A stretch of DNA of 57,890 nt from an uncultured Christensenella sp. (GTDB lineage Bacteria; Bacillota; Clostridia; Christensenellales; Borkfalkiaceae), in assembly GCA_964576995.1 (NCBI GenBank), contig CAZNWP010000001.1:1-57890 (forward strand). Reading direction: 5' to 3'. Under the pieces are notes generated by a model that worked only from the letters and a program-made list of their open reading frames with translations, was not told where the DNA came from and made no database searches. This document shows, piece by piece, positions 1-18,823 of this stretch; positions within the stretch are counted from its first letter, which is position 1; each line of letters starts with the position of its first letter. The translations under genes were made by a program, and so were the position numbers.

Positions 1-2463
1 ATAATCTAAAAATTTCTTACCTTGTCCTTCACCCTGACTAATGTTAAAATATTCAATAACAATATTATAAACGTTTATGACGCTACTTTTTGTAAACTCA
101 AGCAATTTATTCCATTTTTCATTTTTTGATATGCCAATATTTGTTTGTGCTGGATTTGAAATTATATCTTGAATAGTAATATCTTCGACTTTCTCATAAT
201 TGATTTGTTTCTTTAATATTTTTTCATAAACAAGTGAGACCAACGACAGCTTTATATAGTTTGGTACATCATCATCTTTATAATCCTTTACTATAGATAT
301 AATTTCCTTCTTTCTTGATTCAAGCCAATTTGTAAGAATAAAAACAGCATTATATGCACCGTCAAAATCCCAACTTTTTTTGCCACCCAAATAAATCCAT
401 TGACCTATTGAACGTAAAACCGTATAGGTCTCCATACTGTCATCCAAACGAATTAAGCCATCTTCAGCACCTTTTTCTTGTCTTTCAAAGGATATCATTT
501 TTGACTTAAATCCAGATTCCCATATAGTTTTAATTCTATTTTTTGGAATACCGTATTGTTGCCAATTAATGGTATTGTAAATAAAATCACTTAATTCTTC
601 TTTTATTGCTCTTGGTTCTACAAAAACAGCTTTTTTATAGTACCAGTTATCTAACATGCTCTTAAATTTCTCAAAAGCCTTGTTCGTTTGTACAACAGGT
701 TTATCCGGTACATTTACTACTTCTGGTGAATCTATGTGTTCTACGCCCTCTACGCCTTCATCAATTGTATTTATTAATGAATTCCAAAGATCGCTAAAGC
801 CAAATTCAATAAATATATCCTTAGATATACCAGCGATTTTATTACCGACTTTTTTAAGTTCTCCATTACCCCAAAAACTTATTAATGCAATAGCTCTTTC
901 TTTATATTCTTCTCTATTTTCAATTTTTAAGGTATTTACTATTGCCGATATTCTTAACACTGCATCACCTAAATCAGGTTTATTCCTTTTTACTAAATAA
1001 GTAATAAACTTTGATTTATCTGTAATAAGTTCCACAATAGCAGGTTTGATAATTTCTAAAAGAATATATCTTGGAGTTTGGTGAACATTCATATAAGCAT
1101 ATAAATTTTCAATCGCTTTCTTTGTAAAAGGATACAAAGAAAGATTATTGCCACTGTATTGAACTGTTTCCCACGATGCTACATCTGGGACATGAACTGG
1201 AATTTGTGCCTCATCTGCACCGGTGTTAACATACCATTCTTTGAAATCTTTTTCCAAGAGAGATACTGCGTTCAAATATTTTGCAAAAAACAAAAATAAG
1301 TCATTTTTATTTTGCCCTAAACTACCGTCTTCAATAGTTATTTGAGCCGTAATTCTATCTTTATAATTATCTCTAAACGTATCATAATATTGTTTAGTTG
1401 CACCTACAACAGAGACAAGCTTACAAAGTTTATCTGATGCATTAAGACCTGTGTGCTCAGTTACCAAAACATTGAGTAAAGCCTGGTTGACACCAGTAAA
1501 AGACGTTATATCTTCAATTAACAGGATAAGATTTTTCCCTTGCTTATATAACTCTTGTCTTATTTCCTTAAAGATTTGTTGAAAATCCCCTGGTTCGATG
1601 CCTGCGCAACTTTGAATAACGTCGTCAACTTTAGAATTCATAAAATTAACAATTTTACTCAAAAGTTCATCATCGCAATCATCTGATACAAGCTTCTTCG
1701 CCATACTTACAGCACTACTATCTGCCGTATCTTTCATCTGATCAAAGAAATCTGTCGTAATTATAAAGTCTTCTTTCTTAAATTCGGCTATTATATCTAT
1801 GTTGGATACATTTGATGCTGAAATCTTGCTAAATATTCTTTCAATAGGACCATCTGGTTTCATCATTTCTGATTTGAATAAATCATTATTAAGTAATGCA
1901 ACCAGCCTTTTCTTTGCTAAAGATGTTAAAAATTCATCATCGCTTACGTTTATTTCTACGATAAACTTTGCAAAGATTTCCTCTTTAAATTTTACATCGC
2001 TAATAGTGGTATTTGCTTTAACAAGCCTTTCGTAAATATCTCTATTTTTTAAATTTTTTACAGCCTCAATTCCAAGAAGTTGTTTTATCGTTCCCTTTAG
2101 TGTATTGTCACTTCTATTAATTAGTAAAACTTCGTCTTCACCATTATTGAACTTTTTTGCCAATAAATTAGTATACACCCATCTAATAAAGTGCGATTTA
2201 CCAGAACCACTAGAACCATTTACAATAATCAGCTGATGTTTATCTCTAACAGCGTCATCTTCAAACAATTTATAGAAAACATCTGTTTCCGGAAGTATTT
2301 CCTTCTTTACAATATTTTCTTGGTTTTTATCAAGTAATACCCCACCTTGAAAAACTATTTTTTTAAAGGGAATATGCGTCGCCATGAAATCATATTCTTC
2401 ATTGTTAATTGAATCCACGTTAATTACTTGGTAGATTCTATTTTTCGCAATTTGTATATTCAT
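1..2463 (-). CDS. Large P-loop NTPase (>820 aa; C-terminus beyond window edge), last visible gene of the helicase operon
   Basis: Absent from the ORF track because it has no stop in the window. Hand translation from the ATG at 2463 (MNIQIAKNRIYQV...) stays open to position 1 (821 codons). Walker A GSSGSGKS at codons 83-90; Walker-B-like LILLIEDIT near codon 315. The start lies 1 nt after the upstream stop (TAAtATG). Confidence 0.75.
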   Translation of the reverse strand, partial: MNIQIAKNRIYQVINVDSINNEEYDFMATHIPFKKIVFQGGVLLDKNQENIVKKEILPETDVFYKLFEDDAVRDKHQLIIVNGSSGSGKSHFIRWVYTNLLAKKFNNGEDEVLLINRSDNTLKGTIKQLLGIEAVKNLKNRDIYERLVKANTTISDVKFKEEIFAKFIVEINVSDDEFLTSLAKKRLVALLNNDLFKSEMMKPDGPIERIFSKISASNVSNIDIIAEFKKEDFIITTDFFDQMKDTADSSAVSMAKKLVSDDCDDELLSKIVNFMNSKVDDVIQSCAGIEPGDFQQIFKEIRQELYKQGKNLILLIEDITSFTGVNQALLNVLVTEHTGLNASDKLCKLVSVVGATKQYYDTFRDNYKDRITAQITIEDGSLGQNKNDLFLFFAKYLNAVSLLEKDFKEWYVNTGADEAQIPVHVPDVASWETVQYSGNNLSLYPFTKKAIENLYAYMNVHQTPRYILLEIIKPAIVELITDKSKFITYLVKRNKPDLGDAVLRISAIVNTLKIENREEYKERAIALISFWGNGELKKVGNKIAGISKDIFIEFGFSDLWNSLINTIDEGVEGVEHIDSPEVVNVPDKPVVQTNKAFEKFKSMLDNWYYKKAVFVEPRAIKEELSDFIYNTINWQQYGIPKNRIKTIWESGFKSKMISFERQEKGAEDGLIRLDDSMETYTVLRSIGQWIYLGGKKSWDFDGAYNAVFILTNWLESRKKEIISIVKDYKDDDVPNYIKLSLVSLVYEKILKKQINYEKVEDITIQDIISNPAQTNIGISKNEKWNKLLEFTKSSVINVYNIVIEYFNISQGEGQGKKFLDY

Positions 2464-3279: not shown

Positions 3280-5700
3280 TTAATTAAACATATAATCTTC
3301 GGTGTACGAAGATTCAACAATCTCGTAAAGCATTTTATTGAACGTCGGTATATAATAATTTTCTTTAGTAGCTAGTATAATCTTTATTGCACTTTTTGAA
3401 CGAATCCTATCAATCATCTGCAAAATTCGTATGATTTGACTTTCCTCATTAGGACACTCTATAAGAATTGTTTTTGACATGAAAAATTCATTTCCATTTA
3501 CAATCTTCCTAAATTCGTCCATACTAAAAACAATGCAGTCAGACAATTCTTGGCAAGTAAATTGGGGTTTTCTATCATCCTCTACAACTAACGTTTTTAA
3601 ACCTTTATCCATTAGTTTACTTTCAAGTGAATCAAAATCATTTGTCCTTATAATCAGTAGACTTGTATCTATATCATACTTATCGTTCAAATCATACTTT
3701 AACGAATTTGAACTAACTAATGGAAGACCATTATATGCTCCTTTTACAATATGGTCGGTATGCGAATTACACCCACTGCAATATTCATACGGTATGAGTG
3801 AATACTGCTCAATAAGTATATCGCTAACACATTGTGTATTGCTTTTGGATAGGAACTTTATCATATCCTTGTATGCTTTTTCGGTATCTGACCATTCATG
3901 TTCACGATACAAGGTAATAGTATCTATTATAGCTTGATTTTCCTTAAATAGGTTTTTATCTTTCAATCTAACTAATATATGATAATTGTTTTCGAAATAC
4001 TCAACCGCTTCTATTTCTATTAAATTATGCCTTTTCATAAACAACAAAACATACACGTTCCAATCTATGTCCCTTGAATTTAGGTTCGTTATAAGTTCAT
4101 CTTGTTCATTGTAATTAGGCTTAATTGAAGTGTCTAAGGTAACAGTGCCCTCCCCGTGTTTTTTTGATGTAACACCGTTTAACATACTGAACCATCTACC
4201 TTTAATCTTATCAGTTGTTAAAACTTTTCTTCTAATAAAACTGAATGCGCCAGTTTCATCTTCTTTAACATATAAAATAACACTCAATGATGAATTCCCA
4301 TCTCTACCACCTCTACCAGCCTCTTGATAGTATTTGTTAATATTATCTGGCATATATAAATGAAGAACGGTTCTTACATCTTTTTTATCTACACCTACGC
4401 CAAAAGCACAGGTTGCTATCATAATTTGGAAATCGTTATTTTTCCATTTTTGGATTAATAACTCCCTATCTTTTGACGACGTTTCACCTGTAAAAATATT
4501 GGTATTAAAAATTCCTTGAGTTTCAAGCATTTCCTTAACTCTTTTTGCCTCATCTGGCCTATCGACATAAACGATCATCGGATGAGGAAGTAGTTTGATT
4601 AATTGAATTGTTTTTTCATCCTTATCGAAGAACGAATTAGCTTTAATAAAGTTATATCTAATCTCCCTACGCAAAGAATCGCATCTTAATTCTATCCAAT
4701 TATCATTAACTGAATAAAATTCTTTAAGAAGTCTAGCATTATTTTGATTGAATGTTGCAGAAAGTAAGAATGTTCTCAACTTGTCATTCTCGGAATAGAG
4801 ATTTCTTATCAGCACGTCAACGCACTGAAAATCCAATCTAAAAGAATCGCCCCATTCAAATATAACGTGCGCTTCATCAACAATTATATTTTTTAACCAT
4901 CCTTCAGCATTAAGTTGTTTAACAACGCTCTCTAAAGATTTATTTTTTATTAATGCCTCTGGAGATAGAAATAATAACTTGATTTTTTTTGTTAATAAGC
5001 CTTTCTTAATTTTTGCGAAATCTGTGCTTGAATTATAAATTTCAATTTCGTCTTTGTGCTGAGAAATTATTTCACGTGCATTTTCAGCTTGGTCAATCAT
5101 TAACGAAACAGTGGGAACAATAACAATGGTTAATCCCGATTCTTGAAAGGCCACCGTTTGAGTAATTAAACTCTTCCCCCCACCTGTAGACATTGATACC
5201 AATACACTGCTACCAGCCGGAGCACGCAAAGAACCCATAACACACAACTTTTGTTCTTCCGACTTAAAACTGCTAAACCCCGTTAAACTTTTTATATAAG
5301 CATTTGTAGATAAATAACAGTTTTTTTCTACGTGATGAGGAACAGGTTCCGCCGTAGCTGCCTTCATAGCAAAATTAGATATTACATAATTAGGATATGA
5401 TTGTAATACCCATAAACCATCGTTTCCAGTATGTAATCCTATTGATTTGCCGAACTCCGACAATTGATAGTCAATATTAAAAGTTTCTTTTGTAAGCATC
5501 AAATAATCTCTTAAAGCTATTTCAAAATCACATGTAAACTTCTTGTTTGTTTTGACCAAAAACCATGATTTAATCAACCTAATTGCCGAATTTTTTTCGA
5601 CTTCTAGGCAACTTAAATTCTTAACTTTTTCAATACAAACACTTAAAGGATTACCGCTTTTTAAAATGTCTTCGATTTGTTTTGTTATTTTACTGCTCAT
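3280..5700 (-). CDS. RecQ-like SF2 (DEAH-box) helicase with unrelated N- and C-terminal extensions
   Basis: Motif I STGGGKS, motif II IVDEAH, motif III LSAT, motif VI QEAGRGGRDG (RecQ-type QxxGRxGRDG). About 160 aa N-terminal and about 300 aa C-terminal (contains CSGC) are without recognisable motifs. Start overlaps the SNF2 gene stop by 11 nt. Confidence 0.85.
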   Translation of the reverse strand: MSSKITKQIEDILKSGNPLSVCIEKVKNLSCLEVEKNSAIRLIKSWFLVKTNKKFTCDFEIALRDYLMLTKETFNIDYQLSEFGKSIGLHTGNDGLWVLQSYPNYVISNFAMKAATAEPVPHHVEKNCYLSTNAYIKSLTGFSSFKSEEQKLCVMGSLRAPAGSSVLVSMSTGGGKSLITQTVAFQESGLTIVIVPTVSLMIDQAENAREIISQHKDEIEIYNSSTDFAKIKKGLLTKKIKLLFLSPEALIKNKSLESVVKQLNAEGWLKNIIVDEAHVIFEWGDSFRLDFQCVDVLIRNLYSENDKLRTFLLSATFNQNNARLLKEFYSVNDNWIELRCDSLRREIRYNFIKANSFFDKDEKTIQLIKLLPHPMIVYVDRPDEAKRVKEMLETQGIFNTNIFTGETSSKDRELLIQKWKNNDFQIMIATCAFGVGVDKKDVRTVLHLYMPDNINKYYQEAGRGGRDGNSSLSVILYVKEDETGAFSFIRRKVLTTDKIKGRWFSMLNGVTSKKHGEGTVTLDTSIKPNYNEQDELITNLNSRDIDWNVYVLLFMKRHNLIEIEAVEYFENNYHILVRLKDKNLFKENQAIIDTITLYREHEWSDTEKAYKDMIKFLSKSNTQCVSDILIEQYSLIPYEYCSGCNSHTDHIVKGAYNGLPLVSSNSLKYDLNDKYDIDTSLLIIRTNDFDSLESKLMDKGLKTLVVEDDRKPQFTCQELSDCIVFSMDEFRKIVNGNEFFMSKTILIECPNEESQIIRILQMIDRIRSKSAIKIILATKENYYIPTFNKMLYEIVESSYTEDYMFN

Positions 5701-8700
5701 TTCTCATCACCACATAGCACACTGAATCAAGTGTTATGCTAGCATTTGCTATCATTTTGTAAATTATTTCATTTTGCTTTTTTTGTGTTTCTATATCTTC
5801 ATTTTTATCGAAGAAAATTGCAGAAGCCTTTTGCGCACTTAATGTGGAAACTAGTTCATTATACAATGCGTTCAAAAGCGCCTTCTTTTTTGTTTCCGAC
5901 TTTTCTATTGCTTTTCCTCTTGCCTGCTTATGAGCCATGTCAACCAATGGATACCATTTTGCTTTTGGTGGATACTCCCTGATGAAATTAGCTATCGGTG
6001 GATTAGCACCATCTCTCTTACCCAGATGTTTAATTGAAGCTCCTTTTGGATTTTGAACGATAGAAACAAACTCAGATACAACCTTACTTTCTTCTATTTC
6101 CGAATCTGAATCATCAAACACTGTAATGATCTGTTCTGAAGGAAGGTAACCCTTATACTGATTGATTAAATGTTCACTAAGTTTATTAGCATAAATTATT
6201 TTATCATCTACTTCGAGCTTCCACGTAAAAACAAAACCTTTCCAATTGATATTTGACTTACACGAAAAACAACAACAAGTTCCTTTATATGAACCTAAAG
6301 CATTTTCTGTTATAGAATCAAAAATATCATCCCCTGGTGCAAAGAAATTTAAGTAGTCATTTTGAAGAGCTTTATTTCTATTAAATGTTCCTCTAATATA
6401 GGAATTATCTCCATGGATTATTCTTTCGTTATTAAGAATACGAACTCTGTTTCTCAATTGATTCAACTTGTTCTCAATGATAGCCTTCATATCAGGTGGC
6501 ATAAACAAGGTGTTAACTAATGACTGCCATACTATTGAATCCTTAGAGAAGGCTACAACATTCTCTCCGTCTTCCTTACCATGAAAGCCAGCTAAACCTG
6601 CCCAACTCATCATTGCTTCACCAAAAAGATTTGTTTCATTTTTGGTGTATTTTTCAACCGTCTCATCAAGCATTTTATTAATTGCTTTAAATTGATAAGC
6701 TGCTATATCATAGACTTGTTCTTTTTTAAGAGTATCAAGCTGCTGTTTAATTAAATCCGCAAGTTCATTATTGGCTTGAACTAACCCAAACTTAAAAGAT
6801 TGTTTCAAACAATTAATAAGAGCATCTTCAATATCTCCCATAATAATTTCCAATCCGCTTTGAGCTTTTGTAAATAAATTTAATCCATTATTCCAGAGTT
6901 CAAAAAGATTTTCTTCTACAGTTTCTTTCCCATATGCAACTACCGATACAACGTCTTTTGAAGAATCTCTACCAATACGGTCTAATCTACCGATACGTTG
7001 TTCTATATCATTTGCATTCCAAGGAATATCAATATGAATCAAATAATCTACATGCTGAAAGTTACGTCCCTCACCACCAGACGCATCAGACAACAATATT
7101 CTTCTATGTTCTTCCGTTTGAAATCTATACGCATTTAATTCAAGGTCATCCGTATTCATTTCCTTGCTAAAGAAACAACACTTGTCTACACCAAACACCT
7201 TTATTAAAATTTCCTTGTACAAATCAAACGTTTCTTTAAAATCAGTGAAAAGAATAACTTTCCCTTCGTCGACTGACGATTTTATAAAATCAAGTATATT
7301 ACAAAGCTTTGTACCTTGTTTGAGCGCATTAAGTTCGTCCAAGAGATTACGCTCGTACATTGCATATCTATTTGCTACTGATTTTAGTTCATAAGGAATA
7401 TTAGTTTTTTCTTCCAACTTTGCTAATTGCGCATTGAATGCCTGCGCCGAGCTAAATAGCGAATGTACAACTGGAATTATATCAGTATAATAGTCTAATT
7501 CTCCGCCATATACATTTTCTAACCATTCAGCGAAAGCCGTATATGCATTCCACTCGTCAATATTATCATCGCAATCTGCTTCATAAGATAAATCAATAAG
7601 CTTTCTTTCTACGCCTTTAGTATCCTCACTCGAATTTACTTTTTGTCTTCTATTTCGAATAATTGACTTTTCTAATTGGAAATTTTCACAAACGTATGCA
7701 ATTATATTTTGAAATTCCGATATACCACACTCTTCCGCATCGTAGTTTATATTTTTCAAAAGCGTATTGAATCTATCATCTTGTATTAATTTTGACACAT
7801 CAGAAAGTTCTTCAAATACTGCCTCAAATATTTCCTCTGTTTCTTCATTCTTTTCATTGTTTGAATCCACAAGAGCTTCATTTAATGCACCAAGTTCGTC
7901 AAGCGCATTAAATATTTTTCTTATAATCTTATTTTGCTGCTCTAATAAAACCTGGAATCGTTCCTTTCCCATTTTTTCGTATTTTTCAGGTTGTATTAGG
8001 CATAACAAACGCAAGAACTCATCGTCGCGCTTTTGTAACGGGGTTGCACTTAACATTAAAATGTTATCGCACTGCTTGCTAATTTGAAGCACTCTTTGAT
8101 ATGATATTCTATCTTTTAGACATCTATGTACCTCATCAAAGATAACGAAATCATACGAATTGAACAAACACGATTCGATATTTGACATAGGCACCAAGTC
8201 AATAATATTTGAATTTATATTTTCTCCTTCAAACAATTTAAACTTGAATGCTAATTCGTTTTTCCATTGCTCAACAAGAGCATCCGGAACCGCAATTAAA
8301 ATCTTTTTATTTTTATTATCTTTTACATAAATTTTTAATATCGATAGTGCTTCTACTGTTTTACCAAGACCTACTTCATCGGCTAACATATACCTGCATT
8401 TTGGAGCCTGCAAGCATCTCATTACGGTTTTAAGTTGGTGAGGTTTCAAAAATATTTTACAACCAGCTAATACCTTAAAGCCATACAATGAATTTTCGAT
8501 ATAATTCATTGTCTTACTTACAACACATCTCCCTGTAAACCATCTTGGATTCTGAAACTCATAGGTTTTAAGTTGAAGCAATGGTCCTATAATAAAATCA
8601 TTATACGAAACCATTAACTCAGACTCGCACACATAAGAAATAGAGCCATCTTCATCTTTTACATAATAATAACGAAATTCATCATTTTTATTAAGGTCGC

Positions 8701-8962
8701 CAGCACATACTACAACTTTCCTTCTTTTATATGTAGCAAGTGCTCCTTTTTTCACCTTACAATGTACGAGCCTAGACATTTCTATTTCTATATCTTTAGG
8801 TTTCTCATGATACACAGAAACACCATTAGTATCCATAAAGATAACCTTCGCTTTTTCGGAAATCTCATCTATAGCTTCAATTTTCCCCATAGCAAAAGAA
8901 CGAGGGAATCTCATATTTTCCTCATCCACTGGACATCTAACTAGCATTCCTACTTTTATCAT
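5690..8962 (-). CDS. SNF2-family ATPase, RapA/HepA-like
   Basis: LKPHQL...RYMLADEVGLGKTVEA (closely parallels E. coli RapA LIPHQL...LLADEVGLGKTIEA), DEVH box (VIFDEVHR), LSATP, C-lobe GGEGRNFQ and QRIGRLDRIGR. About 170 aa N-terminal beta-rich region in the position of the RapA Tudor-like domains. Confidence 0.88.
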   Translation of the reverse strand: MIKVGMLVRCPVDEENMRFPRSFAMGKIEAIDEISEKAKVIFMDTNGVSVYHEKPKDIEIEMSRLVHCKVKKGALATYKRRKVVVCAGDLNKNDEFRYYYVKDEDGSISYVCESELMVSYNDFIIGPLLQLKTYEFQNPRWFTGRCVVSKTMNYIENSLYGFKVLAGCKIFLKPHQLKTVMRCLQAPKCRYMLADEVGLGKTVEALSILKIYVKDNKNKKILIAVPDALVEQWKNELAFKFKLFEGENINSNIIDLVPMSNIESCLFNSYDFVIFDEVHRCLKDRISYQRVLQISKQCDNILMLSATPLQKRDDEFLRLLCLIQPEKYEKMGKERFQVLLEQQNKIIRKIFNALDELGALNEALVDSNNEKNEETEEIFEAVFEELSDVSKLIQDDRFNTLLKNINYDAEECGISEFQNIIAYVCENFQLEKSIIRNRRQKVNSSEDTKGVERKLIDLSYEADCDDNIDEWNAYTAFAEWLENVYGGELDYYTDIIPVVHSLFSSAQAFNAQLAKLEEKTNIPYELKSVANRYAMYERNLLDELNALKQGTKLCNILDFIKSSVDEGKVILFTDFKETFDLYKEILIKVFGVDKCCFFSKEMNTDDLELNAYRFQTEEHRRILLSDASGGEGRNFQHVDYLIHIDIPWNANDIEQRIGRLDRIGRDSSKDVVSVVAYGKETVEENLFELWNNGLNLFTKAQSGLEIIMGDIEDALINCLKQSFKFGLVQANNELADLIKQQLDTLKKEQVYDIAAYQFKAINKMLDETVEKYTKNETNLFGEAMMSWAGLAGFHGKEDGENVVAFSKDSIVWQSLVNTLFMPPDMKAIIENKLNQLRNRVRILNNERIIHGDNSYIRGTFNRNKALQNDYLNFFAPGDDIFDSITENALGSYKGTCCCFSCKSNINWKGFVFTWKLEVDDKIIYANKLSEHLINQYKGYLPSEQIITVFDDSDSEIEESKVVSEFVSIVQNPKGASIKHLGKRDGANPPIANFIREYPPKAKWYPLVDMAHKQARGKAIEKSETKKKALLNALYNELVSTLSAQKASAIFFDKNEDIETQKKQNEIIYKMIANASITLDSVCYVVMRNEQ

Positions 8963-8974
8963 GACTGTACTTCC

Positions 8975-11599
8975 TTAGTTATTTTTATTTTCTAAACACA
9001 CATCCTTGCTTGCACAATATTTGCAATATGGACTTAAATTATAAGACCAATTGTTAAAAGATAAAATAGCCTCAACCTGTTCGGGTTTCAAGAGTTCTAA
9101 ATCTTTTTCTGCCTTATAATCTAAAAGATGTTCATCTTTTATAAGTTTCCTCTTCTCAACAGCTGAAAGCACTTTAAACATATTATTCTTTATGTAAAAT
9201 GGTGTTACAACATCCTTATAAACTTGAGCTGTTAACTGTGCTTCTTCCAACTTAGTACATAACCTAAATTTATTGTCAATCTTATCAAAATTTTCTTTAA
9301 TTGCATCCCTTACGCTTTTCTCATTAAAGGGTTTCCCTTGCATGCTTTCAAGTACCATATTTTTTATTAAGATTCTCATATACATGTGTATCAAAAATCT
9401 GTCTCTAAAAACGGTATCATTTTGTGCAATATTTTCTACGCCAAACTTATAAGGGCACAACGAAATTTTGATTCTAGATAATTCATCAAACGACATAACA
9501 TATTTCTTCAAATCAAATTCTGCATTCTTTGGATACACAATATTGGGCAAGAAGCCTGATTTATCATATATGCTAAATTTACGAACCTTGATTCCAAGCA
9601 TTGATAAAATATGATATAAATCATTTTCTTTATCATTTTCGGTTTTTACATAACTAAGTTTACATTTGTTTCGGCAAAATTCCAATCCGTATATTAAAGC
9701 ATATCTATTAAAATTATGATATTCCGTTTTGGCTTTTACATATAATTGATATTTCCAATCCAAAGGAATTTGAATATAGTTAAAGAAACTTACATCAAGT
9801 GGCCAAGACAAATGTTCGTCTTTGTTTGCGCAAATATCCTTATCCGACAAACAGCAGAAATGATATATTGCATTATCGTTTTTATCATCACTCTTTAATA
9901 TATCACCATCTATTTGTTCGAACCCTCTTACAATCCACTTTGCCCCGTGATTTATATTTTCATCTTGACTTAAATAGTAACTTAATGTTTGACGTAACGT
10001 AATAAATGAGCCTGATTTCGGGATATCTGTATCCCCCATTCTATCAAGAAGGTTACGCATCACCCCTATTATCTCATTATCAAATTCAGAGTTGTCATTA
10101 ACTTTAGACATAATGAACTTTTTAACTTTTTCATAGAAATGTCTAAAGTTTTCTTCACCATTCTTAAAGTCACGATAAAAAGAATCTACAATATCTCTTA
10201 AGTCTAATAATGCTTGTATTAACTCAGCCAAATTTGTAGCGGATACATTAAAGTATCCTACCTTTTTCTTCTTGTCGTAAACTACTGCAAGGTTCTTCTT
10301 AAGTTCTTTAAGTCTTGAAATAATTTTATTATAATCTTTCAAATCCTCAATGTATGGTAAAATTTGGTTGAAGGTGTTTATAAGAAGTCCTTGTTTTGTT
10401 TCAGTTAAAATACCAGCAGTTAAACACTCTTTTATATCCGAGAAATTGTTTACAACAACAACTTCATTTTCACTATCCCACATGTTCATTGTAGCAATGA
10501 AAAAGTGACCAATCGGATAATCCAAGAAATGACGTTGTTCAAACTGATCCGGGAAATATGCCCTTAATATATCATTGACCTTTGGGGAAGCAGAATAGAA
10601 TTGCTCTTCCATATATCTCAATGGTGAGCGATATGGATTACTATCTGCGCGCTTCTTCTTACGGGCTTCTTCATATATTTGAGCAACATAGTTAGCGAAT
10701 TCCGTATTGTTTTCAAACTCAATAACTTCAAACGAATCTATCTCTTCATTTTTCTCATTATATTTACAGTCAGACATCTTACCAATACAGTCTGCCAACA
10801 TATTCGATTTATAAGAGTCCCCCAATAAAGCATTAGGTTCGAACTCTTCGTTGCTACTAAATTTGATGTTGGTATTAAACAACGAATATATATCAAGCCA
10901 TGTTTGATAAACCTTTTGATATTGCTTTTGATAATTAAAAATCAAAACAACATTCTTCACCTTTGCAATGTCTTCAATTGCGCATAACATTGCTGGTGAA
11001 AATTGATGCACTCCATTTATCACAACGGTATTAAAATCTAATTTATCAAACGGGATTTTATCTTGCTTCTTTACACCAGCAGCATCTATTAACGACTGCT
11101 TTATCGCATTATTAATAGACTCATTGTCAGACACTCTCTTGAATGTAAAACTAGAATTAGGGTTTGAATAAATTATTTTATAAATATCTACTAAATACTT
11201 TTGGTCAATATTTATATTGTCGGTCTTAAAATCAAAAGGATTGAGATTTAACTCAGCTAAAATTCTTAAACTATTAGCAATATTCTTTGCATTGTTATAT
11301 AAGGATTTTCTAACACTGTCTACATGATCACCCTCGATTTGCAACATTCCTATTGCATTATCAACTTCAATCATCTGTTTGATTTTCGTACCGAAATCAT
11401 CCCACTGTTTATAGAGCAAATTAATTAAATTTTTGATTGTTGTTATGTTTAAGTTTTCATTAAAACAATCATATGTCCCTCTAAATCCATTTACTAAGGT
11501 TTGTGAAACACAAAATTGAGGACAACATCTTATATCATCCCAAAATTCCTCTTCCTCTAGCGTGTATGGATTAGTATATGTATAAATTTTTATTGACAT
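8975..11599 (-). CDS. AddB/RexB-like protein: degenerate helicase scaffold plus RecB-family nuclease-like C-terminus with 4-Cys Fe-S signature
   Basis: C-terminus has SLCPYKF ... LLDYK ... CKYCASKDVC, i.e. C-Xn-C-X2-C-X5-C as in AddB/Cas4 iron-staple nucleases, with a DYK motif-III-like element between. VINGVHQFSP resembles the AddB DGFxxFTP motif with D to N. No Walker A seen. Start moved to the ATG at 11599 (MSIKIY...) because AAGGAG lies 8 nt upstream. It overlaps the upstream stop by 10 nt (ATGTCAATAA). Confidence 0.6.
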   Translation of the reverse strand: MSIKIYTYTNPYTLEEEEFWDDIRCCPQFCVSQTLVNGFRGTYDCFNENLNITTIKNLINLLYKQWDDFGTKIKQMIEVDNAIGMLQIEGDHVDSVRKSLYNNAKNIANSLRILAELNLNPFDFKTDNINIDQKYLVDIYKIIYSNPNSSFTFKRVSDNESINNAIKQSLIDAAGVKKQDKIPFDKLDFNTVVINGVHQFSPAMLCAIEDIAKVKNVVLIFNYQKQYQKVYQTWLDIYSLFNTNIKFSSNEEFEPNALLGDSYKSNMLADCIGKMSDCKYNEKNEEIDSFEVIEFENNTEFANYVAQIYEEARKKKRADSNPYRSPLRYMEEQFYSASPKVNDILRAYFPDQFEQRHFLDYPIGHFFIATMNMWDSENEVVVVNNFSDIKECLTAGILTETKQGLLINTFNQILPYIEDLKDYNKIISRLKELKKNLAVVYDKKKKVGYFNVSATNLAELIQALLDLRDIVDSFYRDFKNGEENFRHFYEKVKKFIMSKVNDNSEFDNEIIGVMRNLLDRMGDTDIPKSGSFITLRQTLSYYLSQDENINHGAKWIVRGFEQIDGDILKSDDKNDNAIYHFCCLSDKDICANKDEHLSWPLDVSFFNYIQIPLDWKYQLYVKAKTEYHNFNRYALIYGLEFCRNKCKLSYVKTENDKENDLYHILSMLGIKVRKFSIYDKSGFLPNIVYPKNAEFDLKKYVMSFDELSRIKISLCPYKFGVENIAQNDTVFRDRFLIHMYMRILIKNMVLESMQGKPFNEKSVRDAIKENFDKIDNKFRLCTKLEEAQLTAQVYKDVVTPFYIKNNMFKVLSAVEKRKLIKDEHLLDYKAEKDLELLKPEQVEAILSFNNWSYNLSPYCKYCASKDVCLENKNN

Positions 11600-14500
11600 A
11601 ATTCTGCTCCTTCCAACAATCTGTTCCAATTGTATTTGCCATTATCCTTCTTGCCAAACCATATACATCTATTTATTGCACGAGTCAATGCAACATATAA
11701 AATACGTGATTCTTCTTTCTTGATTTCTGAAATTTCGTATTTTGTATCAAAAAACTCATTCGCATATCGTTCAACCCTAAAATTAAAGCAATACCCTATC
11801 TCGTTTTCTGTACACGAAAGTTCTATTGTATCCTTCTTGATTTCGTTTATCGCATTCTGTGTATAAGGCAAAATAACTGTGTCATATTCAAGACCTTTAG
11901 ATGCGTGTACGGTAATGCATATAACTCTTACACGATTATTCTCTTCAATAACGTCTCTCGATTTTGCTTCTTGACCTGTTGTGATTGAAATAATAAGTGA
12001 TTCGTTTATTGATTCTAACGTTAAATAATTTCTCTTATTTAATCTAGCTAAAGATTCAAAAATAAGTTCGTAATTTATTCTATAATACGTTTGTTTTTCT
12101 ATCGACGTTGAGTAGTTCTTCCAAGGCTTAGTTGCGTTATATATTTCACGTAATACCTGTAAAGTAGGATTCTTCTGAACATTCTCCACTACTTCAGCCC
12201 AAGTTTTATTCATTACTTCCTTAAAAAACAAGTTCAAGCAATCAATTAAAACTTCAAGCTTTTCTTCCTCCGATTTGCTTACCAAATTTAACGGAGAAAA
12301 TTTAATATTGATATTGTTAGAATAAATAAAGTCGTACAAATAGATAACGTTGTATGGATTGCATAACGCAGATGTCAATTTACACAAATCAATAGTTGAT
12401 TGTAATTTATAAAGGTTAGTATTCTTATCGCTTTCTACTAATACTCCTTTATCCCTGCCACGTTTTAATATTTCACCTACTTCGTAATTTTTACGAACCA
12501 GTATAGCAATTGTTTTTTCAGATTCAGACAGATTCTTGCTTTTGCTTATTTCTTCTAATTCCTTTATTCTATCCTTGACCTTATCGAAAAGCTTATCGTA
12601 TAGATCGTCCTTATTTTCATCCGTAGCTTCATACTCTACCTTTTCTAAAAATCTATCAAACGTCTCATCACTTTGCTTTATTCCAACAAGCGAATCAGAT
12701 TCACCATAAGGAATCAAATGTTGAGTACCTAAATCGGCAAACAACGAATCATATTCTTGCAACAATCTTTTATCAGAGCGATAATTTGTGTTCAACGAAA
12801 ACTTTATCCATTCATTTGTATCGCATCCCATCTTTGTGAATGCGTCCATCGTTGCGCCCCTAAATCTATATATACTTTGCTTCAAATCTCCTACGATAAA
12901 ATACTTAAATTTTATTTTATCCATCATTGCCTTGAATATACTTATTTGGGCGTCGTCTACATCTTGGAACTCATCAATGAATAAATATTTGTAATGATAT
13001 AATCTTGGATTAAACGACTCATCCTTGATGCATTTATTTAAGTAAATCATATACTCCGATAATGCAACAAGATTATTATCCAATAAGAATTGAGAATACT
13101 CAATTTCCGCATTTTTTACAACATCTAAGATAATTTCTTTAAGGTATTTCGCACCAGATATTTCAGCGCCAAGCATCTTAGAATCAATCGTTCTTAAATC
13201 AACACCCTTGTTATAGCACTTATCAATAAAATCCATCATGTATCTTTCGATGTCATACAAGCTAATTTTTACACGATATACAAATCCTGGATCTTCTTCT
13301 ATTTTTCTTTCAAAATAACTACTAAGATGTCTACGCAATATTTGTCTTCGTTGATAATTACCGGTTACCGTAGCAAAATCAGTACCTATCCCAAGAGGAA
13401 TAGATGTTCTTTGAATTATCTCTTTTGCAAAACTATGTATAGTTGAGATTCTCATTCTTTCAATATTAGAAATCATCTCTAAATAATGCTTATCTCTCGT
13501 TAATACAAAATAATTTCTAAATTGAACTTTTAATCTATTTCGCATATTAATTGCTGCTTCGTCCGTGAACGTAAGCATAGCAATTTCATCTGACACACTT
13601 AAAACATTAGATCTAGATACAGAACTACAAATATAGGAAATTCTAGATATCATTGAATACGTTTTTCCTGTACCCGCACCTGCTCTAACCTGAATATGTT
13701 TATCACAAGGAGCATGTTCTACAAAATACTGCTGCAAGTTGAAACTTGTTTTCTTTGCGAGAAGTTTTACTTTGTCAAGGATATCGTTGGGTATACAGCC
13801 ATTTATTATTGTAATATTTTCATTAAAAATATCGTCGATATTTTCATAACAGCTCGCCTCAAAGTTAAAAATTAAAACCTTATTTTCTTTAACCTTTACC
13901 GGAGACGAATTTGAAACATTTAATAACAACTGATTCCCTTTATAGGAAATATTATTCGCAACAAAATATTTATTTATATTTTCTGCTAATGCTTCTAATT
14001 CCTCTTTAGATTTTACAAATACACTTTGCCTAACACCCAACGTATAATTTTTTAAGATATTTTCAATATCTGAAAATGTTAATCTTTGAGAATATATTCT
14101 AAGTTCGGAATAGTTATTTTCAATTGTATCAGTTACAATTGATGACGTTGCCTCAAAATGCTTTCGTATCGTATCATATACAACACCTGATGTTTTATCT
14201 GCGTGTTGTACCTTATTCTGCTTAAATATCATGCCTAACTTAGCAGCAAGTTTATCTTTGTTTTCTAAATCTTCAGTAAATAAAGTTACTTCCGGTTCTG
14301 ATACAATATTTAATCCGAGCCTTTTATATTCCTCCTCTGATATAAACGGATAAGCAACAGCGCTTACGACAACGGGATTAATACCATAGCGAGAATTAAG
14401 CATGTTCAATAAGGCAAATCTATAACCATTTGCCTGCTTCTTTGGTGATGATACAAGTTTATCATAGTCTTTTAATTGAATTTCGTCTGGAGATTTTACC

Positions 14501-14706
14501 GATACAACATGTTCTGGCATCCATCCCTTTACTTCAATTATCATTAGACCAAGATTTTTAATTAAAATACAAAAATCAAACTCGTGTCCGTTTATCTCCC
14601 TATTGTAATACCCTATTACAGTATCGGGAAGATTTCTTTCAAGGCAATCATAAACCCTTGCCTCGCCAACGTATTTGTCACTTTTTTTATCTAAAATTTT
14701 AGCCAT
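11590..14706 (-). CDS. NERD-domain / UvrD-family SF1 helicase fusion (AddA-like role, nuclease module at the N-terminus)
   Basis: N-terminus GEARVYDCLE...EFDFCILIKNLGLMIIEVKGW (NERD-type D-X13-EVK). Helicase motifs AGAGTGKT, FIDEFQD, VGDLKQSIYRFRGA, TNYRS, HASKGLEYD, LYVALTRA. GGTGA RBS upstream of the ATG. Confidence 0.9.
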   Translation of the reverse strand: MAKILDKKSDKYVGEARVYDCLERNLPDTVIGYYNREINGHEFDFCILIKNLGLMIIEVKGWMPEHVVSVKSPDEIQLKDYDKLVSSPKKQANGYRFALLNMLNSRYGINPVVVSAVAYPFISEEEYKRLGLNIVSEPEVTLFTEDLENKDKLAAKLGMIFKQNKVQHADKTSGVVYDTIRKHFEATSSIVTDTIENNYSELRIYSQRLTFSDIENILKNYTLGVRQSVFVKSKEELEALAENINKYFVANNISYKGNQLLLNVSNSSPVKVKENKVLIFNFEASCYENIDDIFNENITIINGCIPNDILDKVKLLAKKTSFNLQQYFVEHAPCDKHIQVRAGAGTGKTYSMISRISYICSSVSRSNVLSVSDEIAMLTFTDEAAINMRNRLKVQFRNYFVLTRDKHYLEMISNIERMRISTIHSFAKEIIQRTSIPLGIGTDFATVTGNYQRRQILRRHLSSYFERKIEEDPGFVYRVKISLYDIERYMMDFIDKCYNKGVDLRTIDSKMLGAEISGAKYLKEIILDVVKNAEIEYSQFLLDNNLVALSEYMIYLNKCIKDESFNPRLYHYKYLFIDEFQDVDDAQISIFKAMMDKIKFKYFIVGDLKQSIYRFRGATMDAFTKMGCDTNEWIKFSLNTNYRSDKRLLQEYDSLFADLGTQHLIPYGESDSLVGIKQSDETFDRFLEKVEYEATDENKDDLYDKLFDKVKDRIKELEEISKSKNLSESEKTIAILVRKNYEVGEILKRGRDKGVLVESDKNTNLYKLQSTIDLCKLTSALCNPYNVIYLYDFIYSNNINIKFSPLNLVSKSEEEKLEVLIDCLNLFFKEVMNKTWAEVVENVQKNPTLQVLREIYNATKPWKNYSTSIEKQTYYRINYELIFESLARLNKRNYLTLESINESLIISITTGQEAKSRDVIEENNRVRVICITVHASKGLEYDTVILPYTQNAINEIKKDTIELSCTENEIGYCFNFRVERYANEFFDTKYEISEIKKEESRILYVALTRAINRCIWFGKKDNGKYNWNRLLEGAELCQ

Positions 14707-14727
14707 TGTTTTTCACCTTTTAAGAAA

Positions 14728-14946
14728 TCATTCCTCTTGTGTATCAACTTCTATAAAATCACATACATCGCCTATATTACAATTACAAACTTTGCATATT
14801 TTCATAAGTGCAGATAGCGATACTTCCTCATCCCTGCGAAGCTTAGTCATTGTGCCTGCAGCTAGTCCTGACGCCTTTCTTAAATCCGCTTTAGACATAT
14901 CAAGGTCTATCAATAATTTCCAAAGTTTCTTATAGCTAATCTTCAT
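14728..14946 (-). CDS. XRE-family helix-turn-helix transcriptional regulator (72 aa), first gene of the operon
   Basis: MSKADLRKASGLAAGTMTKLRRDEEVSLSALMKICKVCNCNIGDV is a typical short Cro/CI-type HTH. Its stop lies 21 nt before the helicase start. Confidence 0.85.
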   Translation of the reverse strand: MKISYKKLWKLLIDLDMSKADLRKASGLAAGTMTKLRRDEEVSLSALMKICKVCNCNIGDVCDFIEVDTQEE

Positions 14947-14988
14947 TTTTTTAGTTCTCCTAAAATATATAAAATCCCAATTTACATA

Positions 14989-15017
14989 ATTATAGCACTT
15001 GATACAATATAAGTCAA
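14989..15017 (-). promoter_or_regulatory. Sigma-70-type promoter of the XRE/helicase operon
   Basis: Minus strand TTGACT (15017-15012), 17-nt spacer, TATAAT (14994-14989), about 40 nt upstream of the XRE start codon. Confidence 0.7.
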
Positions 15018-15102
15018 TTACATATGGTCATCCTAACGATAAAGTATATCAAGATGTTGTGATTTTTTACTGGTTTATTATGATAGTTTCGTCTAATAAA
15101 GA

Positions 15103-15756
15103 TTATTTTTTGTGACAATAATCCCAATACCAGCATCGATAAGGTGTCTCGCAGTGACATCCAACCTCTCTTAACACTTCTTCCTTTTGGAATTTTATCT
15201 TACCAAGAATCCAGATGTTATCATCAACCTGTCTCCAGTATTTTGTTGCTTGGTCTGTAACATCTTGAATTACAAAAGGATTATTCTCATCTGGCCCGTG
15301 ATATATAACATAGCAATTTTTGATGATAACGCCACACTTTTTCAAAAGATATCTTTGAAATGCAATATCTTGCACGAATATATCTTCAACCTGTGGTGAA
15401 TTCTTTACTTCGTATATATCGTAACCATCCCCATTCTTCTTTAAGATATCAACTGCGCAATAATGACCATAATAAGTAAAAGCAGCTTCGCAAATAACTT
15501 CAACACCTAACGATATAGCACCCTTAGTCTTTTCGATCATTTGCTGATAATCAAGTCTATCACTATCTTCCTTGTACGTAGTGACTTCTATATAAGGACC
15601 AAAAATCCCCATCGCCTTATCGCCAAACTCATTTCCAGCATCAAGCTTTTCTTGTACTTCTGGCGGAATAATCTTAAATTCGGGATGATGCTTATCAAGC
15701 CACAACATCCTTGGACACTGCAATCCTCTCATAAAATCCGTTTTCGTTACACCCAT
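15103..15756 (-). CDS. Stand-alone PD-(D/E)xK nuclease, DUF2779/Cas4-like with Fe-S cysteines
   Basis: N-terminal LQCPRMLWL (DUF2779/Cas4-type first Cys), AVDIL...DIYEVK (D-X13-EVK), C-terminal CHCETPYRCWYWDYC cysteine cluster. AAGGAG RBS. Confidence 0.7.
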   Translation of the reverse strand: MGVTKTDFMRGLQCPRMLWLDKHHPEFKIIPPEVQEKLDAGNEFGDKAMGIFGPYIEVTTYKEDSDRLDYQQMIEKTKGAISLGVEVICEAAFTYYGHYCAVDILKKNGDGYDIYEVKNSPQVEDIFVQDIAFQRYLLKKCGVIIKNCYVIYHGPDENNPFVIQDVTDQATKYWRQVDDNIWILGKIKFQKEEVLREVGCHCETPYRCWYWDYCHKK

Positions 15757-16548: not shown

Positions 16549-17166
16549 TTACTTAGTTGTTAATATAACTAGCATTTCAATCCAGAAATTCATATTTTTA
16601 TCCATTGAATTCCATAATCTATTTGATATTACCTTAAATGCAGTTGCTCTTAACCTGTAATAATGCCTTTCCGATATCTCTAATTTGTTTGCAACCTCAG
16701 TTAAAATTAATTTCTCAGGTGCAATATACGATTGATAAATTAATTGATACAAAAGTTCCCCTTGATAAGCATATCTTTTTAAGGAATCTACAGCAACATT
16801 TATTCTATCTATAATTAGTCTCGCTTGTGTAATCCCCTCTAATCTATGCTCTAATCGCCTATTCCCATACGCCATCTCAACATCTAATCGACTAATTAGT
16901 TTATCGATATTCTCAAATGGCTGCTCTAGTTCGTCTGAAATTTCCTCAGGAAAAGTTTCTAACACCCACGCAAGATTTCTATATTGCTTCAGCATTAATT
17001 CAGTATTGTGATAAACACGACGTTGCTTACTTTGTTTTGCTTTACGAATTCTTTCCTCGGCAATATTTTCGTCTTCAATAAGGCCAGTCCTAACAAACAA
17101 CTGCACCATTTTCTTTATCTCATCTTTCTTTTCGGTAAAGATATTGCTATTAGATTTATTTCCCAT
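16549..17166 (-). CDS. Regulator with C-terminal sigma-70 region-4-like HTH (about 205 aa)
   Basis: C-terminus LTEVANKLEISERHYYRLRATAFKVISNRLW. Start moved to the ATG at 17166 (MGNKSNS...) because AGGAGG lies 6 nt upstream. C-terminal module is paralogous to the upstream 522-aa protein. Confidence 0.65.
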   Translation of the reverse strand: MGNKSNSNIFTEKKDEIKKMVQLFVRTGLIEDENIAEERIRKAKQSKQRRVYHNTELMLKQYRNLAWVLETFPEEISDELEQPFENIDKLISRLDVEMAYGNRRLEHRLEGITQARLIIDRINVAVDSLKRYAYQGELLYQLIYQSYIAPEKLILTEVANKLEISERHYYRLRATAFKVISNRLWNSMDKNMNFWIEMLVILTTK

Positions 17167-18724
17167 AACACACCTCCTTATAAAGACTGTAGAATGACGT
17201 AGGTTCTCCATTTACATCAACAGGAATATTCCATAAAATCCGAGCCAACAATTTATACGCTAAACTCCTTAATTTGTAGCAGTATGTTATCGATATCCCT
17301 AATTCGTTTGCAATTTGCAAAGTGGTTTTTTCTCTGCAACTAAAATATGCCTCTTTCATTATGTAGTAGAGTTTCTCTCCTTTTTCGGGAAATCTACTTA
17401 ATCTCTCTGTGGCATTCTTCAAAGCCTTCAACAATACATAAATGTTTCTAATTGAAGCAATCTCTGATTGCAAAGACTTATTTGCTGGTTCCCAACAAAT
17501 TAGTTTCTCAAACGATATTTCTTTGGGTAAGCCGTATTCTTTGTACAAATTTTCTTTTAATAAACCTAGTTCAAAATAATACGTCCTATACATCTGCATA
17601 GCCAGTAACACTACTCTTTTTTTTGCCGATTCAAAATTTTTCAATGACATTTCTCGTACATCACTTTTAGCTGAGGCACCTTTACTTCTTAGCATTTTTG
17701 TTCTCCTTTTTTCCGACAATCCAAGAAGCTCACATGGACCACGTATTTTATTTTTTCTAAACTTTACCTTTGTAGATATATAAATACCTTTGCAGTCATA
17801 CCAATAATTACAGAAACTCCAACACGGAGAAATATACGCGCGTATTATATAATCAAAAAGTGCAACGCTATTTTCTTTTTGAAAATACTTTTCAATTAAT
17901 AATTCACTATATTCGTGTATGAGTACAGCTAAATTAGAATGCCTACAATCAATTCCATACTCGTTAAAAATCTCTTTTGTTTTTATCAATATTGCTTCAA
18001 TCTTTTCTGAATCAGGAATTTGAATCTCTTTATTTACTGGATAAAGTTTGTTGTAGATTAAGCAACCGTAAGTTCCGGGTAGACGTATTAATTTATATAC
18101 CTCCTTGTTTTTTTGGAAAAATCTCCATGTCTTTGTCTTCTCCCAGCCCCAACGCTTACTTAGAGCTTCTAAAGACAAAAACGAAAAAAAATCGCCAAAC
18201 GTGACACCTGGAGAAAAAAAAGTTAAAAAATTTTTTTGATCATTAAAAATGGTATGTATCCAAAGATCTAACCAAGCGTCAGATTCTTCAAATACATACC
18301 CTTTTTCAATAAGTCTTTCAGTAATATTTCTTGGAACACAAATAAAACCAAATTCATTTGTTGCATACACATTATCGTTTTCACATTCTGCCCCAGAACA
18401 CTCAAACACGTAATCTAAAATCTTATACCTAAGTTTTTTTGTATCTCCCTCCAATTCATATTCTATATATCCAAGTTCGGATAGTTTACTCAAAATATCT
18501 AAAGCTTTTTGTTTATTCGAAACTTCTAGGATACTTTTAAGCCCCATAACGCCTCCGACCCATTCTCCCACCTCAACTTTATTTACGTGGCCGCAATAAA
18601 ATGCGTTTCCTTTTCTAAAAGCAACGCGTGAAGCAAGTTTAGCCCAATATCCCATAATCCCTTTTCCGCGAGGCAATAGATCCCTTCTTAACTTTACCCA
18701 TTTGTACTTAAATAGACATTTCAT
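17156..18724 (-). CDS. 522-aa DNA-binding protein: phage/plasmid-type winged-helix region plus C-terminal sigma-70 region-4-like HTH
   Basis: SLEALSKRWGWEKTKTWRFFQ resembles phage replisome-organiser-type wHTH segments. C-terminus LQIANELGISITYCYKLRSLAYKLLARILW aligns with the 16549-17166 product. AGGAG RBS. Confidence 0.55.
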   Translation of the reverse strand: MKCLFKYKWVKLRRDLLPRGKGIMGYWAKLASRVAFRKGNAFYCGHVNKVEVGEWVGGVMGLKSILEVSNKQKALDILSKLSELGYIEYELEGDTKKLRYKILDYVFECSGAECENDNVYATNEFGFICVPRNITERLIEKGYVFEESDAWLDLWIHTIFNDQKNFLTFFSPGVTFGDFFSFLSLEALSKRWGWEKTKTWRFFQKNKEVYKLIRLPGTYGCLIYNKLYPVNKEIQIPDSEKIEAILIKTKEIFNEYGIDCRHSNLAVLIHEYSELLIEKYFQKENSVALFDYIIRAYISPCWSFCNYWYDCKGIYISTKVKFRKNKIRGPCELLGLSEKRRTKMLRSKGASAKSDVREMSLKNFESAKKRVVLLAMQMYRTYYFELGLLKENLYKEYGLPKEISFEKLICWEPANKSLQSEIASIRNIYVLLKALKNATERLSRFPEKGEKLYYIMKEAYFSCREKTTLQIANELGISITYCYKLRSLAYKLLARILWNIPVDVNGEPTSFYSLYKEVCYGK

Positions 18725-18737
18725 AATTTACTCCTAA

Positions 18738-18762
18738 ATAAAAAAAGCCGATTTTCATCGAC
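18738..18762 (-). terminator. Small terminator-like hairpin at the island edge, between the truncated PBP and the 522-aa gene
   Basis: Minus RNA GUCGAU-GAAA-AUCGGC (6 bp with one G-U, GNRA loop) followed by U7. It sits directly before the AGGAG of the 522-aa gene. Confidence 0.45.
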
Positions 18763-18823
18763 TTCTTCACTTAAAAATTTTATTTGGTTGTTTATTATTA
18801 TATACTATGTATATAATACTCAT

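Follow-up and report, generated by a model that had tools for sequence, protein, structure and literature searches.

An AddAB-like helicase-nuclease pair within a Dpd-like operon of an uncultured Christensenella species

Introduction

What does a UvrD-type helicase with an N-terminal nuclease domain do next to a large protein that belongs to no named family? The question is raised by two overlapping genes in a DNA stretch of 57,890 nucleotides from an uncultured Christensenella sp. (contig CAZNWP010000001.1 of assembly GCA_964576995.1), which was analysed as a whole and is called the window here. The genes encode a helicase of 1038 amino acids (aa) and a partner of 874 aa (Table 1). An initial annotation, made by reading the letters without database searches, had taken them for a rearranged relative of the AddAB pair and had assigned them an accessory function in place of housekeeping recombination. 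Our analysis showed that the pair is AddAB-like in architecture yet fails several defining features of AddAB, and that it is embedded in a larger seven-gene system, a context that went beyond the initial annotation. The building blocks of this system are all of known kinds: an AddAB-type helicase-nuclease, a Dpd-like core and, in many relatives, Dnd modification. We give a probability of about 0.6 to the main lines of a combined account, in which the pair is the AddAB-like effector of a Dpd-like restriction module that is often coupled to Dnd.

The helicase and its N-terminal nuclease

Pfam assigned three domains to the 1038-aa protein: NERD (PF08378, aa 12-114; 36.6 bits, above the cut-off of 22.1), UvrD-helicase (aa 331-626) and UvrD_C (aa 637-1011). 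D44-x13-E58-V-K60 was found in the NERD domain, which corresponds to the D-X13-EVK module recognised earlier, and E15, D44, E58, V59 and K60 were invariant in 20-22 orthologues of 48-76% identity. The Walker A string AGAGTGKT, DEFQD and motif VI were invariant in the same orthologues. Because catalytic and helicase motifs are both kept without exception, the NERD nuclease and the motor look active as far as sequence can tell. The UvrD/AddA helicase motifs and the lack of a C-terminal RecB nuclease had also been pointed out in the initial annotation. Both observations held; the protein ends only 27 aa beyond UvrD_C and therefore has no room for such a nuclease.

The resemblance to AddA, which had been proposed as well, was borne out in sequence and in fold. 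The best sequence match in the PDB was AddA (3u44_A; phmmer, E 1.2e-17). When an AlphaFold2 model of the helicase (mean predicted local distance difference test score, pLDDT, of 80.5) was searched with Foldseek, the top four matches were AddA chains (E 7e-22 to 2e-20), with UvrD, RecB and PcrA just behind. It should be mentioned that the models of both proteins were built on shallow alignments of 20-26 sequences. RecB and AddA were also the best NCBIfam models, although the helicase failed both: it reached 117.4 bits for addA_Gpos (TIGR02785; cut-off 707.65) and 140 bits for recB (TIGR00609; cut-off 696). In PADLOC, the N-terminus matched the C3a187 'NERD+UvrD' model (E 2e-14) and the core matched many GajB models. 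Between NERD and the helicase core, at aa ~190-320 (window ~13750-14140), the model showed a separate alpha/beta domain for which no family match was obtained.

The AddB-shaped partner

The partner gene likely starts at the ATG behind the ribosome-binding site GAAGGAG, as judged from its sequence, giving 874 aa; the mechanical open reading frame (ORF) begins further upstream at TTG 11629 and would encode 884 aa. The translational overlap with the helicase gene that had been noticed before amounts to 10 nt. No match to the partner was found in Pfam, NCBIfam, PADLOC or PHROGs, a sub-threshold DUF1048 being the sole entry overall, and a tblastn search against phages returned a single unannotated faecal contig of 8 kb. 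The family itself is large, with 691 matches in a collection clustered at 90% identity and 634 clusters at 50% identity. None of the members listed with Pfam data has a domain, and any name given to them by the source is 'hypothetical protein'.

The fold comparison was more informative. With an AlphaFold2 model of the partner (mean pLDDT 79.6; alignment of 26 sequences), the top three PDB matches in Foldseek were the AddB chains 3u4q_B, 4cei_B and 3u44_B (E 1.2e-11 to 1.7e-10), in an alignment of ~984 columns, which is in agreement with the AddB-like fold that had been suspected. RecC (7mr1_C, E 1.3e-8) ranked fourth and UvrD-type helicases followed. Furthermore, the cysteines pointed to the same relative. 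In 132 diverse homologues, C715, C859, C862 and C868 reached 99-100% conservation, and two smaller sets, of 26 close and 25 distant homologues, kept them without exception. No other column was invariant in an alignment of the C-terminal domain of 25 diverse members, and no other position was strongly conserved in the last 200 residues of the partner. C715 lies in the string CPYKF, and the spacing C...C-X2-C-X5-C, which had been read as that of AddB and Cas4, is a property of the family. The fold and the conservation of the cysteines both went in favour of the initial annotation, which had named a failure of either as refuting it. A profile of the C-terminal domain weakly matched AddB residues 1026-1131 (3u44_B, E 0.03) and Cas4 (E 0.7), and both profile alignments centre on CxxCx5C.

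Apart from these cysteines, little of the chemistry of AddB seems to be left. The initial annotation had found no P-loop in the partner, and this could be extended to the family: a Walker A string ([AG]x4GK[ST]) occurred in only 2 of 269 members, at non-homologous positions. In the C-terminal domain, none of the acidic or basic residues reached 85% conservation in the 132-member alignment. The string LLDYK (826-829), to which significance had been attached as part of a nuclease motif, is present but confined to the closest relatives, and its D827-Y-K829 is not conserved; other members have FLLTN, FLNISL and similar sequences there, and LLDYK must be regarded as a lineage-specific chance string. 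Without a conserved acidic residue or lysine, this domain is predicted not to be an active nuclease, which leaves NERD as the sole predicted nuclease of the pair. INGVHQFSP (194-202) fared better. It is present and its G196, H198, F200 and P202 are 89-98% conserved among the 132 homologues, but the likeness to AddB claimed for it was not demonstrable by profile comparison. Model and sequences together describe a partner that is AddB-shaped, catalytically dead across the family and has retained only the iron-staple cysteines. We interpret it as an AddB-shaped scaffold because it combines the AddB fold and conserved cysteines with the absence of a Walker A and of any catalytic residue.

Several results pull in the other direction. 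Searches of the PDB with the whole partner, by sequence and by profile, gave noise only (SsaV, E 0.2), and a comparison of the partner family with the helicase family by hhalign had a probability of 1.3%, which is no signal. A degenerate helicase ancestry of the partner, with INGVHQFSP as its motif II, was considered and was not demonstrable by sequence. The TM-scores of the Foldseek matches were modest (0.43-0.48), which is expected because flexible multidomain models were compared and these came from shallow alignments. In the model, the C-terminal domain consists largely of helices, apart from one short hairpin, so that it may have ceased to be a genuine PD-(D/E)xK fold.

It could accordingly be argued that the two proteins act separately, the NERD-UvrD protein as a single-chain nuclease-helicase and the partner as an independent DNA sensor binding zinc or an iron-sulfur (Fe-S) cluster, or as an adaptor for the Dpd-like proteins. 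There is no whole-protein sequence homology between the partner and AddB, every enzymatic motif has been lost, and the four cysteines could hold zinc in place of an Fe-S cluster. However, the helicase gene was found directly upstream of the partner gene wherever the region was visible, down to 22-29% partner identity, and the strict adjacency goes along with translational coupling in all lineages. Among PDB structures, it is an AddB chain that matches the fold of the partner best, along almost its entire length; the C...CxxCx5C spacing is that of AddB and Cas4, and the profile of the partner domain aligns to this motif in both. We consider separate action improbable. That the NERD-UvrD protein and its partner form an AddAB-like heterodimer with redistributed parts is, in our opinion, very probable.

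A conserved seven-gene operon

Related loci were collected through homologues of the partner, DpdG and DpdH. In all of them the genes followed the same order: NERD-UvrD, partner, DpdE-, DpdF-, DpdG- and DpdH-like genes and a gene for a protein of ~220 aa. The order was kept even where the partner homologue was only 22-29% identical. The scores of the Dpd-like proteins in NCBIfam remained under the cut-offs (DpdE 349/500, DpdF 435/550, DpdG 36/80 and DpdH 291/450 bits), and the DpdH-like homologues in loci L004 and L006 matched the DpdH model at E 3e-86. The YprA-family helicase DpdJ and the phospholipase D-type (PLD) nuclease DpdK were absent from the seven-gene cassette in all loci. No dpdA (TGT-like), dpdB or dpdC was found among the scanned ORFs of the window, whose left end is cut, or among the scanned ORFs downstream of the cassette in relatives. 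The ~220-aa seventh gene had no family match and the label DpdI was not confirmed for it. In two of the distant versions, L037 (6012-7567) and L038 (9123-10459), the partner gene is followed by two extra small genes before the DpdE-like gene is reached; they encode 180-185 aa and 260-338 aa and matched no family. A second UvrD-like helicase, of 693 aa, is encoded upstream of NERD-UvrD in L038.

The setting of the pair bears on whether it could be a housekeeping enzyme. The first ~18.7 kb of the window form an island with a GC content of 31%, compared with 44% in the flanking housekeeping chromosome that carries the genes for DnaE, IleS, RecJ, RelA/SpoT, PNPase and SecD, and in relatives mobile-element genes (Rep, serine recombinase and similar) adjoin the cassette. 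The operon is on a horizontally acquired island. One might suppose that the pair is a divergent AddAB/RexAB for double-strand-break repair that came to lie near defence genes by chance, because its best structural matches are AddA and AddB and no canonical addAB is visible within the 58-kb window. Yet the pair sits in the low-GC island, it is always in one operon with Dpd-like genes, its relatives occur in mobile-element contexts with a distant pair on a plasmid, the helicase lies far under the NCBIfam cut-offs for AddA and RecB, and of the two AddAB nucleases one is missing and the other replaced. A repair role is very improbable on these grounds, and we conclude against a housekeeping recombinase. 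The accessory role proposed in the initial annotation is in line with the island, the mobile-element contexts, the conserved Dpd-like operon and the frequent dnd genes described next. We have high confidence that the role of the cassette lies in defence.

Link to dnd phosphorothioation genes

The neighbourhood of the cassette was counted in 23 loci that showed at least 3 kb past the last cassette gene, some of them closely related. In 12 of these, from at least six lineages, dndB-C-D-E(-A) lay directly beside the cassette. For example, DndB, C, D and E of L004 scored above the NCBIfam cut-offs, with the best DndA match slightly below. The arrangement was mostly co-directional; it was convergent in L041 (C. 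butyricum). The closest relative of the window cassette, L039, has a helicase 72% and a partner 75% identical to those described here, and it has adjacent dnd genes. In that locus, dndB is separated from the ~220-aa seventh gene by a gene for a 331-aa HNH endonuclease (14542-15537), which may be an additional effector. No matches to DndF, DndG or DndH were obtained among the proteins of L004 or of the window. Two loci showed other sets of genes past the cassette: only DndC-, DndD- and DndE-like genes in L019 (13801-17628), with no DndB or DndA seen, and a DndD-like ABC ATPase (29% identity) with a 175-aa gene in L018 (16052-18570). Both sets may represent modification modules that have diverged or been reduced.

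Part of the evidence speaks against a general coupling. In the other 11 loci there was no dnd gene within ~9 kb downstream, where Rep, serine recombinase, NADAR and GTPase genes were found; either phosphorothioation cannot be obligatory, or the dnd genes lie elsewhere. The window itself has no dnd genes upstream, and the downstream side of its operon is cut by the left end. The Dpd-like context is not universal either. A 909-aa partner-like protein of 21.5% identity is encoded on plasmid pJS1-2 of Geobacillus zalihae (NZ_CP129218.1; L005 14419-21392). Its gene is preceded by one for a UvrD helicase without NERD and is followed by a 74-aa gene and a gene for a 472-aa UvrD-like helicase. This pair has neither NERD nor Dpd-like genes, and the helicase-partner combination therefore also exists outside the seven-gene cassette. 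NADAR-domain proteins were encoded directly past the cassette in two dnd-less loci, L024 (13899-14786) and L031 (13906-14805), and the opposite strand of L024 (14874-23123, minus) carries a giant ORF that exceeds 2750 aa.

These findings raise the alternative that the cassette carries out defence or DNA surveillance independently of modification, as RecBCD, Gabija and Hachiman do by sensing ends or damage, with the dnd genes as mere island neighbours. The 11 loci lacking dnd agree with it, as does the absence of a modification gene upstream in the window. GajB-type UvrD helicases act without modification, and it is to many GajB models of PADLOC that the helicase matches. On the other hand, dnd abuts the cassette directly, or with only the HNH gene between, in at least six divergent lineages and in two orientations, and the canonical relatives of the DpdE-H proteins are part of modification-dependent restriction. 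We regard a modification-independent role as unlikely, although less so than the other alternatives. Because about half of the related loci abut dnd, the most likely activity of the cassette is to restrict DNA without the host phosphorothioate mark. For dependence on phosphorothioation as such we see roughly even chances. More tentatively, and with considerable doubt, the cassette could be an undescribed phosphorothioation-dependent restriction module, a counterpart to DndFGH, Pbe and Ssp, whose executor is derived from AddAB and contains a dead, Fe-S-stapled AddB-like scaffold.

Proposed mechanism and comparison with known systems

Under the combined account, the helicase and the partner would form a heterodimer like AddAB or RecBC. 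The complex would load at ends or breaks, translocate in the 3'-to-5' direction and degrade DNA through NERD. The partner would serve as a strand-separating scaffold with Fe-S-dependent DNA binding, which probably holds DNA ends or strands. In AddB the cluster is reportedly needed for binding of DNA ends and not for catalysis. If the partner carries an Fe-S cluster that serves end binding in the same way, it would be explained why the cysteines have outlasted the active site. The retained cluster may be a sensor of DNA ends or of backbone sulfur. The SNF2, RecQ-like and P-loop proteins of the Dpd-like core would select, expose or license DNA without the host mark, which would be phosphorothioate where dnd genes are present; for the window, such genes may lie past the left edge. 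The AddAB-like pair would take over as effector, a part that in canonical Dpd falls to DpdJ (a YprA helicase) and DpdK (a PLD nuclease).

Compared with AddAB of Bacillus subtilis (3U4Q, 3U44, 4CEI), the adjacent genes, the superfamily 1A (SF1A) UvrD-type motor and the helicase-shaped partner with C...CxxCx5C are similar. The differences are considerable: the motor here has an N-terminal NERD domain and no C-terminal RecB nuclease, the partner is devoid of a Walker A motif and of the catalytic residues of a nuclease, both proteins fall short of the resolved AddAB chains in length (1038 aa against ~1120-1180 residues, and 874 aa against ~1130-1155), and the genes sit in a defence operon, not in a repair locus. 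RecC of RecBCD is a functional precedent for the partner, being a scaffold of helicase and nuclease fold for an SF1A motor from which the ATPase and nuclease chemistry has gone. However, RecC is not known to have an Fe-S staple, while the partner retains four invariant cysteines, and no second motor like RecD is encoded in the operon.

With the dpdD-K system of the Salmonella Montevideo type, the operon shares four genes and their arrangement (DpdE-, DpdF-, DpdG- and DpdH-like). It differs in having no dpdA/B/C, DpdJ or DpdK, with the NERD-UvrD and AddB-like pair in their place, and in that the linked modification genes are dnd, not those of 7-deazaguanine. As multi-gene cassettes of helicases and nucleases beside dndBCDE(A), the DndFGH, PbeABCD/CxC-ABC, SspE and SspFGH modules are comparable, but homology to them is limited to generic helicase domains; the match of the DpdF-like protein to PbeA in PADLOC (E 6e-12), for instance, was confined to the helicase C domain. 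Gabija GajB, C3a187 and UvrD-Cas4, as fusions or as pairs, also combine a UvrD-type helicase with a PD-(D/E)xK nuclease in a defence setting. None of these has an AddB-like partner of 870 aa or DpdE-H genes, and GajB has about 500 aa and is partnered with the nuclease GajA.

No description of the cassette or of the partner family was found in the literature, subscription-only papers being outside the search. A survey of Cas4 reported pairs of UvrD and Cas4-like genes in Clostridiales, which are of a different kind from the pair described here (Hudaiberdiev et al., 2017). In a survey of Dnd neighbourhoods, NERD nucleases appeared only as system-boundary genes and the cassette was not mentioned, while surveys of BREX and YprA described other Dpd-related hybrids.

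Locus and neighbouring genes

All large genes of the island are on the minus strand. In the direction of transcription, two regulator-like genes are followed by a 160-aa gene and a 217-aa Cas4-like gene, and after a gap of 396 bp by the helicase, the partner and the DpdE-, DpdF-, DpdG- and DpdH-like genes. A promoter-like site precedes the helicase gene (Table 1), and the total number of such sites in the region was not above chance.

Table 1. Features of the AddAB-like pair and its operon in the window (positions of the whole stretch)
Feature	Position	Strand	Basis
NERD-UvrD helicase-nuclease, 1038 aa, AddA-like motor	11590..14706	-	Pfam, PDB phmmer, Foldseek
NERD PD-(D/E)xK nuclease domain, aa 12-114; catalytic candidates E15, D44, E58, K60	14365..14673	-	Pfam PF08378
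SF1A helicase core, aa 325-1011; Walker A G343-T349, motif II D578-D582, motif VI around R1009	11674..13734	-	Pfam, orthologue alignment
Coupling junction: ribosome-binding site GAAGGAG, partner ATG 11599, helicase stop 11590-11592, 10-nt overlap	11590..11612	-	Sequence
AddB-like partner, 874 aa	8975..11599	-	AlphaFold model and Foldseek
Four-cysteine 'iron-staple' domain of partner, aa ~697-874	8975..9511	-	Cysteine conservation, AddB/Cas4 profile match
Cysteine codons of partner: C715, C859, C862, C868	9455-9457, 9023-9025, 9014-9016, 8996-8998	-	
DpdE-like SNF2 helicase, 1090 aa, operon gene 3	5690..8962	-	NCBIfam DpdE E 5e-104, PADLOC DpdE E 4e-71
DpdF-like RecQ/DEAD helicase, 806 aa	3280..5700	-	NCBIfam DpdF E 1e-129, PADLOC DpdF E 7e-105
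DpdG-like protein, 267 aa	2465..3268	-	NCBIfam DpdG E 3e-9; homologues listed with Pfam PF28110
DpdH-like P-loop protein, first 821 aa, runs off window start	1..2463	-	Alignment with complete homologues in L004 and L006
Near-consensus promoter-like site TTGACT-17-TATAAT with TG, candidate operon promoter	14989..15017	-	Pattern match only

The 217-aa protein (15103-15756, minus), encoded directly upstream of the helicase, resembles a small Cas4/PD-(D/E)xK nuclease. It has an N-terminal C, D...EVK, QxxxY and a C-terminal CxC...C-x5-C, and its scores were weak (Pfam Cas_Cas4 E 0.0024, PADLOC Cas4 E 0.005). It was considered as a general supplier of the missing Fe-S nuclease and was rejected, since the gene is absent from all related loci.

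At the outer end of the island, two overlapping genes for 522 and 220 aa (17156-18724 and 16549-17211; together 16549-18724, minus) share a paralogous stretch of ~170 aa (BLASTP E 1e-12). Both products have a helix-turn-helix-like segment at the end and match PHROGs families of transcriptional regulators; judging from these matches, they are probably regulators of the island or of a mobile element. The island meets the chromosome at a penicillin-binding-protein gene (18824-20305), where the GC content jumps from ~31-33% to ~40-45% at ~18700-18830. A tRNA can be dismissed as the integration site of the island, because no tRNA gene was found in the whole window. A megablast search of the island against plasmids gave no match.

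Significance

The analysis gives a fold and a plausible role to an unannotated protein family of considerable breadth, in which no Pfam domain had been recorded. It suggests that the end-processing architecture of AddAB and RecBCD has been rebuilt, with a NERD nuclease at the opposite end and a second subunit reduced to an iron staple, and has been recruited into immunity. A catalysis-free subunit with four cysteines would also be a natural test case for what Fe-S clusters do outside catalysis in enzymes that process DNA, which should interest specialists in defence systems as well as in recombination. Through the common DpdE-H core, systems of the Dpd and Dnd types become linked. The cassette is a candidate restriction partner for dnd clusters without DndFGH, a puzzle of long standing. 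If the phosphorothioation-dependent reading is true, it would explain many of the 'orphan' dndBCDE clusters in Clostridia and Selenomonadaceae.

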